From positions 1 through 45,542 of the IMG/VR virus record IMGVR_UViG_2671181054_000005: a DNA stretch of 45,542 nt; one strand, written 5' to 3'. The notes beneath the pieces are model-generated. The model was not told the DNA's origin. It saw only the letters and a list, made by a program, of their open reading frames with translations, and searched no databases. Below, one piece after another: positions 20,491-21,011 of the stretch (position 1 is the first letter of the stretch; every line of letters starts with the position of its first letter). The stretch comes from a virus. Its lineage: Duplodnaviria; Heunggongvirae; Uroviricota; Caudoviricetes. The translations under genes and the position numbers were made by a program.

Positions 20491-20552
20491 CCATCACCAT
20501 GGGGTAGCCCATCGTAATGGCAATATCCACATAAGCGGATAGAGAGGCCTCA

Positions 20553-20756
20553 ATGTCCGACACCTACCAAATCACTATCACCACTACATCGAAAGATACG
20601 TTCACTGGCACGATGAATCGAAGCCAGCCTGAAATCGTTAATGGGTTCGTGGCATTGGCTACCGACACGGGTGAATGGCGTTACTTTCGGCCGGACAGCG
20701 TGGAGCAGTTCCACTTTGTACCAGTGTTAGAAGAAAAAGCATCAGAGGACGCTTAG
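20553..20756 (+). CDS. Hypothetical small protein
   Basis: 67 aa, ATG with AGAGAGG Shine-Dalgarno; AT-rich island. Confidence 0.45.
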   Translation: MSDTYQITITTTSKDTFTGTMNRSQPEIVNGFVALATDTGEWRYFRPDSVEQFHFVPVLEEKASEDA

Positions 20757-20779
20757 TTGCCGCCCCCTGATGGGATTTG

Positions 20780-20953
20780 TTACTGATCTACCATTACACT
20801 ATGAATAGTAAGGCCGTTCTTATCTTTGAAAACCACCGTTAAAGGCAATTCTTTGTCTTGTTCTGGGTTCCCTGTTTTGAGAGAGAGGACATCAATTTTC
20901 AATTCATAATTCCCAGTACTGATAAGCATTTTTGCGAAGTCTTCGAGTGTCAT
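20780..20953 (-). CDS. Hypothetical small protein (57 aa), convergent with 20553..20756
   Basis: Track start is TTG 21022; internal ATG at 20953 preceded by strong AGGAGG Shine-Dalgarno on minus strand. Confidence 0.4.
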   Translation of the reverse strand: MTLEDFAKMLISTGNYELKIDVLSLKTGNPEQDKELPLTVVFKDKNGLTIHSVMVDQ

Positions 20954-21011
20954 TATTCCTCCTGTTAAAACCATATTATCGGGAAGTGGCACATAACCTT
21001 TAAGGAAATAT

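Follow-up and report, generated by a model that had tools for sequence, protein, structure and literature searches.

A conserved late gene followed by a reverse-oriented accessory gene (moron) in a known cargo hotspot probably makes up the junction in front of the small terminase gene terS of the viral DNA analysed here, with the moron being expressed in lysogens and damped when late transcription runs antisense to it. The DNA comprises positions 1 to 45,542 of the IMG/VR record IMGVR_UViG_2671181054_000005 (Caudoviricetes), and this whole stretch of 45,542 nucleotides is called the window. What looked like a gene pair is resolved into a core late gene, orf67, and an independent cargo gene, orf57, and the cargo is placed in a hotspot that elsewhere holds the experimentally validated defence gene Tai. 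orf57 itself is a new orphan within a known kind of element.

Arrangement of the genes upstream of terS

The initial annotation described a 67-aa plus-strand ORF and a 57-aa minus-strand ORF, each with a strong Shine-Dalgarno sequence, that converge 23 bp apart just upstream of terS. Inspection of the sequence confirmed these elements and their positions; the gap between the two stop codons comprises positions 20757-20779. Since Q, the lysis genes, orf67 and terS are all located on the plus strand, orf57 is by geometry antisense to late transcription, as had been proposed. The features of the region are:

17642-18142, plus strand: gene for the Q antiterminator, upstream, followed by the holin, lysozyme and Rz genes
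19743-20465, plus strand: DUF4145 gene, GC 0.412, upstream of orf67
20464-20483, both strands: bidirectional intrinsic terminator at the end of the DUF4145 gene
20541-20547, plus strand: Shine-Dalgarno sequence AGAGAGG of orf67, 5 nt ahead of the ATG
20553-20756, plus strand: orf67, 67 aa, late-operon gene of PHROG 6581, the last before the packaging module
20541-20756, plus strand: orf67 with its Shine-Dalgarno sequence, supported by profile match, alignment, dN/dS and predicted fold
20740-20772, no strand assigned: hairpin of 12 bp (20740-20751 pairs with 20761-20772) with a 9-nt loop that holds the orf67 stop codon TAG (20754-20756)
20757-21011, minus strand: AT-rich cassette (putative moron unit), 255 bp, GC 0.388, between the orf67 stop and the terS ATG
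20780-20953, minus strand: orf57, 57 aa, pI 4.8, soluble, member of an orphan family
20963-20958, minus strand: Shine-Dalgarno sequence AGGAGG of orf57, 4 nt before the ATG (20953-20951), invariant in all variants
20975-21003, minus strand: predicted sigma70-type promoter of orf57, -35 TTAAAG (21003-20998), 17-nt spacer, -10 GATAAT (20980-20975)
21012-21449, plus strand: terS, Sf6-type small terminase (Pfam Sf6_terminase PF20901, E 6e-45), right-hand anchor of the insertion site

terS is followed by terL and then by the portal gene. Both small ORFs had been assigned to one AT-rich island, which is not the case: orf67 has a backbone-like composition (GC 0.495, GC3 0.57), and the AT-rich orf57 (GC 0.374) and the DUF4145 gene form two separate patches. 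The cassette as a whole (0.388) contrasts with both orf67 (0.495) and terS (0.527). An 80-aa form of orf57 starting at a TTG was considered and rejected; locus L003 has just the 57-aa form and the Shine-Dalgarno sequence precedes the ATG.

orf67 and orf57 are both real genes

Five distinct variant sequences of the region were aligned. Both frames stay open across the five variants without any indel, and the lowest amino acid identity is 72% for orf57 (Enterobacter sp. BNK-18, L003) and 75% for orf67. Third codon positions account for 28 of the 47 variable columns in orf57 and for 35 of 55 in orf67, and the amino acid replacements in orf57 are conservative in kind. Pairwise dN/dS values range from 0.06 to 0.32 for orf57 and from 0.05 to 0.16 for orf67. 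A six-frame control for orf57 showed that the annotated frame alone is significantly low (dN/dS 0.21, Fisher p 1e-4). For orf67 the annotated frame has a dN/dS of 0.15 (p 3.5e-7), and the codon-aligned antisense frame is low as well, which we take to be an artefact of complementarity. The open frames without indels, the third-position variation and the low dN/dS in the annotated frame together establish that orf67 and orf57 are both real genes and not chance ORFs; dozens of chance ORFs of comparable size are present in the ORF list of the window. PGAP called both ORFs, as hypothetical proteins, on identical Escherichia coli prophages. Strains with a copy of this prophage include E. coli 20A24 (NZ_CP147044) and FDAARGOS_1277 (NZ_CP070103). 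The dS of orf57 is similar to that of terS and orf67, which argues for a long residence of orf57 at this site. An Rfam scan of the region gave nothing near the gathering score.

orf67 is a conserved late gene

orf67 matched the profile of PHROG 6581 with an E value of 2.8e-27, residues 1-64 aligning to positions 1-64 of the 66 profile positions; PHROGs annotates this family as being of unknown function. The family is found throughout the Enterobacteriaceae, with 78 clusters at 90% identity, and relatives were detected in 518 confirmed stretches of enterobacterial viral contigs and 40 of species-representative genomes. Cultured siphophages contain distant relatives, and there too the gene is the last one ahead of terS. 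At least five types of small terminase are encoded downstream of orf67 (Sf6-type, DUF2280, Terminase_2, P22 gp3-type and a presumed HTH-type); terS genes of the DUF2280 type are preceded at these loci by a phage metallopeptidase gene.

Two empty sites (L105 and L107) carry the same Sf6-type terS as the window. Here the orf67 stop is located 7 nt upstream of the terS ATG, and the GGAG ribosome-binding site of terS falls within the 3′ end of orf67. This spacing and overlap show orf67 to be an operon-coupled late gene. As judged from its relatives and its neighbourhood, orf67 is an ordinary conserved phage late gene and not cargo.

Structure prediction, one of the checks proposed with the initial annotation, was run for both peptides. 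orf67 is predicted to form a five-stranded small beta-barrel and orf57 an alpha-beta-beta-beta fold. The predicted orf67 structure resembles Sm-like and other small beta-barrel proteins (Hfq, the DUF903-type lipoprotein 3bdu, YaeO) at the fold level only; the N-terminal helix of Hfq is absent from it, and a sequence search with orf67 gave zero matches to these proteins. A literature search for PHROG 6581 and for the protein accessions returned nothing.

orf57 is an orphan

orf57 codes for an acidic protein of 6.4 kDa with a GRAVY value of −0.16, and its top 19-residue Kyte-Doolittle window reaches 0.6. Both orf57 and orf67 proteins were computed to be soluble and acidic with zero transmembrane segments. 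The orf57 family had no match in Pfam, PHROGs, NCBIfam or PADLOC at E values up to 1, and a tblastn search of 50,697 phage records gave no match. Among 5.8 billion proteins only seven clusters were found, all of them near-identical, and an exhaustive profile search of 1.84 billion representatives yielded one true cluster at 50% identity. The remaining matches of that profile search are short repeat-motif matches in giant proteins and were judged to be spurious. A sequence search against the PDB returned AbiQ alone, with an E value of 0.33. By these searches orf57 is an orphan family. The profile searches recommended at the outset thus assigned orf67 to PHROG 6581 and gave no family match for orf57.

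orf67 and orf57 have separate histories

The initial annotation suggested that the two genes might form one module. We collected 120 unbiased orf67 loci, 40 from species-representative genomes and 80 from viral contigs. orf57 was present at none of the 40 genomic loci and at 4 of the 80 loci on viral contigs, so that 116 of the 120 loci (~97%) have orf67 without orf57. Loci with orf57 were surveyed in about 20 fetched sequences (24 contigs read out of 852 index blocks). orf57 is always located beside orf67 at the roughly 20 loci examined, and the gene order at each of them is orf67, orf57 on the opposite strand and an Sf6-type terS. The genes around the orf57 loci (Q, holin, lysis genes and upstream cargo) are mosaic.

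The alleles of the two genes do not co-vary. Five loci have an orf67 that is 90-93% identical to that of the window without having orf57 (L010, L060-L062, L065), and two others carry orf57 beside an orf67 that is just 75% identical (L007, L008). The same Sf6-type terS is likewise found without orf57, either directly adjacent to orf67 (L105, L107) or with other cargo between the two (L042, L076, L079, L080, L120). This pattern indicates that orf67 and orf57 have separate histories and are no matched pair. Conservation across related prophages, another of the proposed checks, therefore holds for both reading frames and fails for their pairing.

The orf67-terS junction is a cargo hotspot

Gaps downstream of orf67 were recorded at 115 orf67 loci retrieved independently of orf57. 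At 40 of these the next large plus-strand gene follows within 60 bp; another 71 have a gap of more than 150 bp, most of which is taken up, in 37 cases, by minus-strand ORFs of 55 aa or longer. The cargo at the junction belongs to at least 15 unrelated families, which are mostly on the minus strand. DUF6173 is one of them, weak HEPN-like matches were seen for two, and most are unassigned. Homologues of the defence protein TaiEcA are encoded downstream of orf67 at five loci (L061, L063, L064, L068, L075; 181-235 aa; tblastn E values of 1e-14 to 1e-17). AtiEcA, its counter-defence protein, gave no tblastn match over the fetched loci, including those with Tai. Minus-strand Tai homologues were also seen upstream of orf67, at L011, L100 and L117.

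The upstream side of orf67 (1.8 kb, compared over L009-L128) is as variable as the downstream side. Its cargo includes DUF4145, Rha, DUF2513, KilA-N and Tai-like genes, minus-strand ORFs of 286-291 aa and others. The comparison suggests one conserved 67-aa gene that is bracketed by two cargo slots. The earlier proposal that the small ORFs are further cargo of the island applies in part: orf57 is cargo, inserted separately from the DUF4145 island, and orf67 is a conserved late gene. Altogether, orf67 (PHROG 6581) is a mining anchor in hundreds of enterobacterial prophages, adjoined by at least 15 mostly uncharacterised reverse-strand families.

The cassette and its predicted signals

Sequence homology among orf57 loci extends from the orf67 ribosome-binding site through orf57 into terS. 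Comparison with empty or differently filled sites showed that the variable segment reaches from the orf67 C-terminal tail and stop to the terS ATG. Two features by which morons are recognised were seen for the orf57 cassette: it is present or absent between conserved genes, and its composition is unlike that of its flanks. The cassette contains the predicted promoter, the Shine-Dalgarno sequence, orf57 and the distal half of the hairpin.

A promoter for the minus-strand gene had been expected to overlap the terS start region. A plausible sigma70-like candidate, TTAAAG-17-GATAAT, is located in the 58-bp spacer between orf57 and terS, where its -35 element coincides in part with the terS ribosome-binding site of the opposite strand. 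It agrees with the consensus at 8 of 12 positions, which is below the threshold of the promoter scanner, and it is hence absent from the scanner list. Both hexamers are invariant in the five variants; the spacer and the discriminator vary. Transcription would start about 15 nt upstream of the orf57 ATG. An alternative promoter inside terS (21073-21046, 9 of 12 positions) is less likely, since it lies in coding sequence and a terminator-like hairpin (21039-21014) would be met first.

At the other end of the cassette, the hairpin covers the 23-bp gap and the final codons of orf67, whose stop falls in the loop; directly after it, read along the minus strand, comes CUUUUUCUUC (20739-20730). It is present in all five variants, with 93% of cells paired compared with 38-57% in slid controls, and with two compensatory pairs. 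The U-run after the hairpin is good only in the window and in L003 and weak in the other three variants. The hairpin is presumed to be the terminator of the orf57 transcript, and it may act bidirectionally. A transcript that reads past it would next stop at the 20464-20483 terminator and would then be antisense to all of orf67. The search for a hairpin design shared by all junction cargo cassettes showed a small, unconvincing difference in folding energy.

Comparison with known systems

Tai defence genes of lambdoid phages are located ‘predominantly upstream of the packaging module’ (PMC11364771). In phi80, taiEcA (orf63) runs against the Q-dependent late operon, which holds the counter-defence gene atiEcA (orf64); lysogens produce TaiEcA, and less of it when Q is over-expressed (PMC11364771). 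orf57 resembles this system in where it sits, within the Q-dependent late operon, after the lysis cassette and ahead of the packaging module, and in being opposite-strand cargo with its own, here predicted, promoter; expression in the lysogen and damping by Q were shown for Tai and would apply to orf57 by analogy. In sister prophages, Tai homologues fill the very same junction between orf67 and terS. The systems differ in protein length (57 aa for orf57, 204 aa for TaiEcA) and in orientation, tai and ati being divergent and orf67 and orf57 convergent. hhalign gave a probability of 0.3% for orf57 and TaiEcA, and tblastn with TaiEcA matched other junction cargo and not the window. An Ati-like gene was not found in the window, and orf67 is not homologous to AtiEcA.

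A second parallel is the Tab/anti-Tab system of the Pseudomonas phage JBD26, a convergent pair of 83-aa genes beside terL; Tab (83 aa) is an orphan confined to close relatives (PMC10884400). Both arrangements have convergent small genes by a terminase gene, with the plus-strand gene in the late operon and the minus-strand gene under its own promoter, which for orf57 is only predicted. In contrast, tab and atab always occur together, and orf67 is mostly found without orf57. In addition, the JBD26 pair is located between terS and terL with an overlap of 47 nt; here the genes lie upstream of terS with a gap of 23 bp. hhalign probabilities of orf57 and orf67 against Tab and anti-Tab are below 0.3%. 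The two genes were compared with Tab, anti-Tab, TaiEcA, AtiEcA and phi80 orf65, and homology was rejected in each case.

TerI, of the TerI/anti-TerI system of the Listeria phage phi10403S, is a constitutively transcribed 65-aa defence protein that is encoded on the strand opposite the lytic operon and targets the terminase (bioRxiv 10.1101/2025.02.27.640495). Compared by description, orf57 is like TerI a small protein encoded opposite a lytic operon. TerI differs in belonging to an early module, in overlapping its partner gene and in its Gram-positive host.

Lysogens express lambda bor, which lies on the opposite strand in the interval from Rz to cos; its product is a lipoprotein, and HK97 gp15 is a membrane superinfection-exclusion protein. 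Like these classical morons, the orf57 cassette would be an autonomous promoter-gene-terminator unit, as far as its predicted signals indicate, with atypical composition and present or absent between late genes. It differs in coding for an acidic mini-protein of cytoplasmic type without a homologue of known function. The review ‘The moron comes of age’ (PMC3594210) describes morons as independent transcriptional units that confer a variety of benefits. Defence morons that lie in reverse orientation ahead of the packaging module and are regulated as a ‘noncontiguous operon’ have been published already, and orf57 extends this picture and does not overturn it.

Proposed explanation and alternatives

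We consider it likely that the junction works as follows. orf67 would be read from the Q-antiterminated pR′ transcript. orf57 would be an independent, horizontally acquired transcription unit that was inserted in reverse precisely at the boundary of orf67 and terS, after the stop of the one and before the start of the other, complete with a promoter of its own next to terS, a strong Shine-Dalgarno sequence and a hairpin terminator overlapping the orf67 stop. The late operon is silent in the lysogen, so that orf57 could be transcribed there from its own promoter and the 6.4-kDa soluble protein made. After induction, Q-modified RNA polymerase would cross the cassette on the opposite strand and damp orf57, by transcriptional interference or by antisense pairing, as for TaiEcA in phi80 under Q over-expression. 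We infer the use of the promoter, lysogenic expression and antisense damping from the layout of the cassette and its parallels, and a role of orf57 in defence in the same way.

In its likeliest role, orf57 would be an accessory protein that is expressed in the lysogen and acts against phages or interferes with superinfection, because the same slot in sister prophages carries Tai homologues and HEPN-like genes and because small reverse-strand defence proteins within lytic operons, such as Tab (83 aa) and TerI (65 aa), are well established. By this analogy an anti-phage role is plausible, and we put it forward tentatively. It is somewhat doubtful that orf57 is specifically a new 57-aa anti-phage protein of the Tab/TerI/Tai class that blocks a late step (assembly or packaging) of superinfecting relatives, with self-immunity through Q-driven antisense read-through or through orf67. 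If it is, the orf67-anchored junction, itself mostly uncharacterised, would be a rich discovery site for mini-defences in Enterobacteriaceae prophages.

orf57 might instead be a lysogen-expressed moron whose target is the host or a host defence and not other phages, through lysogenic conversion, as a regulator or by inhibiting a host enzyme. The same anatomical evidence fits this reading, orf57 has zero matches to defence HMMs, and many morons are not defence genes, as lambda bor illustrates; varied benefits of morons are named in PMC3594210. Nothing specific speaks against it, and we regard it as unlikely. Tai, the sole junction cargo with a characterised function, is a defence gene, and so is the RAZR/PD-T7-4-like cargo next to it in the window.

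A dedicated pair of the Tab/anti-Tab or Tai/Ati type, in which orf57 blocks a late step of invaders and orf67 neutralises orf57 in the phage's own lytic cycle, would have the architecture of JBD26, where gp30 (plus strand) converges on gp31 (minus strand) beside a terminase gene (PMC10884400). orf57 is indeed next to orf67 in every examined locus, both proteins are small, soluble and acidic, and a recognisable Ati accompanies just 5 of 57 Tai systems, so that counter-defence can be non-homologous (PMC11364771). This makes a poor fit with the distribution, because orf67 occurs without orf57 in ~97% of the unbiased loci, beside many unrelated cargo genes or none, and its alleles do not follow orf57. 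The backbone composition of orf67, its translational coupling to terS in empty sites and the lack of homology of either protein to Tab, anti-Tab, TaiEcA or AtiEcA likewise argue against a dedicated pair, which we consider improbable.

The initial annotation also thought of a toxin-like module. Such a module, with orf57 as a type II toxin of the HicA/dsRBD-like kind or a type I toxin and either orf67 or a 3′-overlapping antisense RNA as the antidote, is very improbable: HicA_toxin and other toxin-family, toxin-antitoxin and defence HMMs did not match, no co-directional antitoxin gene is present, and the genes, being convergent, do not form an operon. A type I membrane toxin would be a hydrophobic membrane-spanning peptide, which orf57 with its GRAVY of −0.16 is not; both proteins lack a transmembrane segment.

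Equally little credence is given to the reading that the minus-strand RNA from the terS-proximal promoter is functional and represses leaky orf67/terS expression in the lysogen, with the ORF being incidental, even though this RNA would cover all of orf67 in antisense if transcription continued past the hairpin to 20464-20483 and antisense silencing has been noted for terI (bioRxiv 10.1101/2025.02.27.640495): there is clear purifying selection on the protein, the orf57 frame being the one frame of six with a significantly low dN/dS, AGGAGG is invariant, the replacements are conservative, and many relatives have no cassette whatever at the junction.

Neighbouring genes and further observations

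The DUF4145 gene product combines a zinc finger at its N terminus (CPFCG...CPNPEC) with a DUF4145/HEPN domain (VRNIGNIGAH), and it matched PD-T7-4 in PADLOC with an E value of 1.3e-12. PD-T7-4 has been renamed RAZR, an RNase that is activated by rings of phage portal or recombinase proteins (PMC13017515). Together with its terminator (19743-20483) the DUF4145/RAZR-like gene looks like a plus-strand defence moron, as judged from these sequence matches. A function of orf57 or orf67 in self-immunity against it was considered and rejected: orf57 occurs without DUF4145 at L003-L008, L051, L131 and L135, and DUF4145 is missing from nearly all orf67 loci.

A nested inverted repeat (20488-20523; TTGCCAT ... 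ATGGG gtag CCCAT ... ATGGCAA) is located between the 20464-20483 terminator and the orf67 ribosome-binding site. It is partly kept in L004 despite the different upstream gene there.

One prophage copy in E. coli FDAARGOS_1277 (L130) has a resolvase/invertase gene (7064-7660) in the position of Q and is otherwise identical. This suggests that its late-regulation region is rearranged and possibly defective.

Between terL and the portal gene a 77-aa plus-strand ORF (22749-22982) is located in an AT-rich dip (GC 0.41-0.46). Relatives have an ORF of 83, 79, 77, 65 or 57 aa or none at this position, which points to a further small cargo slot. The portal ORF itself (22949-24382 in the window, 8554-9903 in L001) belongs to Pfam Phage_portal_3 and is named ‘anti-CBASS protein Acb1 family protein’ by PGAP, which is probably a quirk of annotation transfer.
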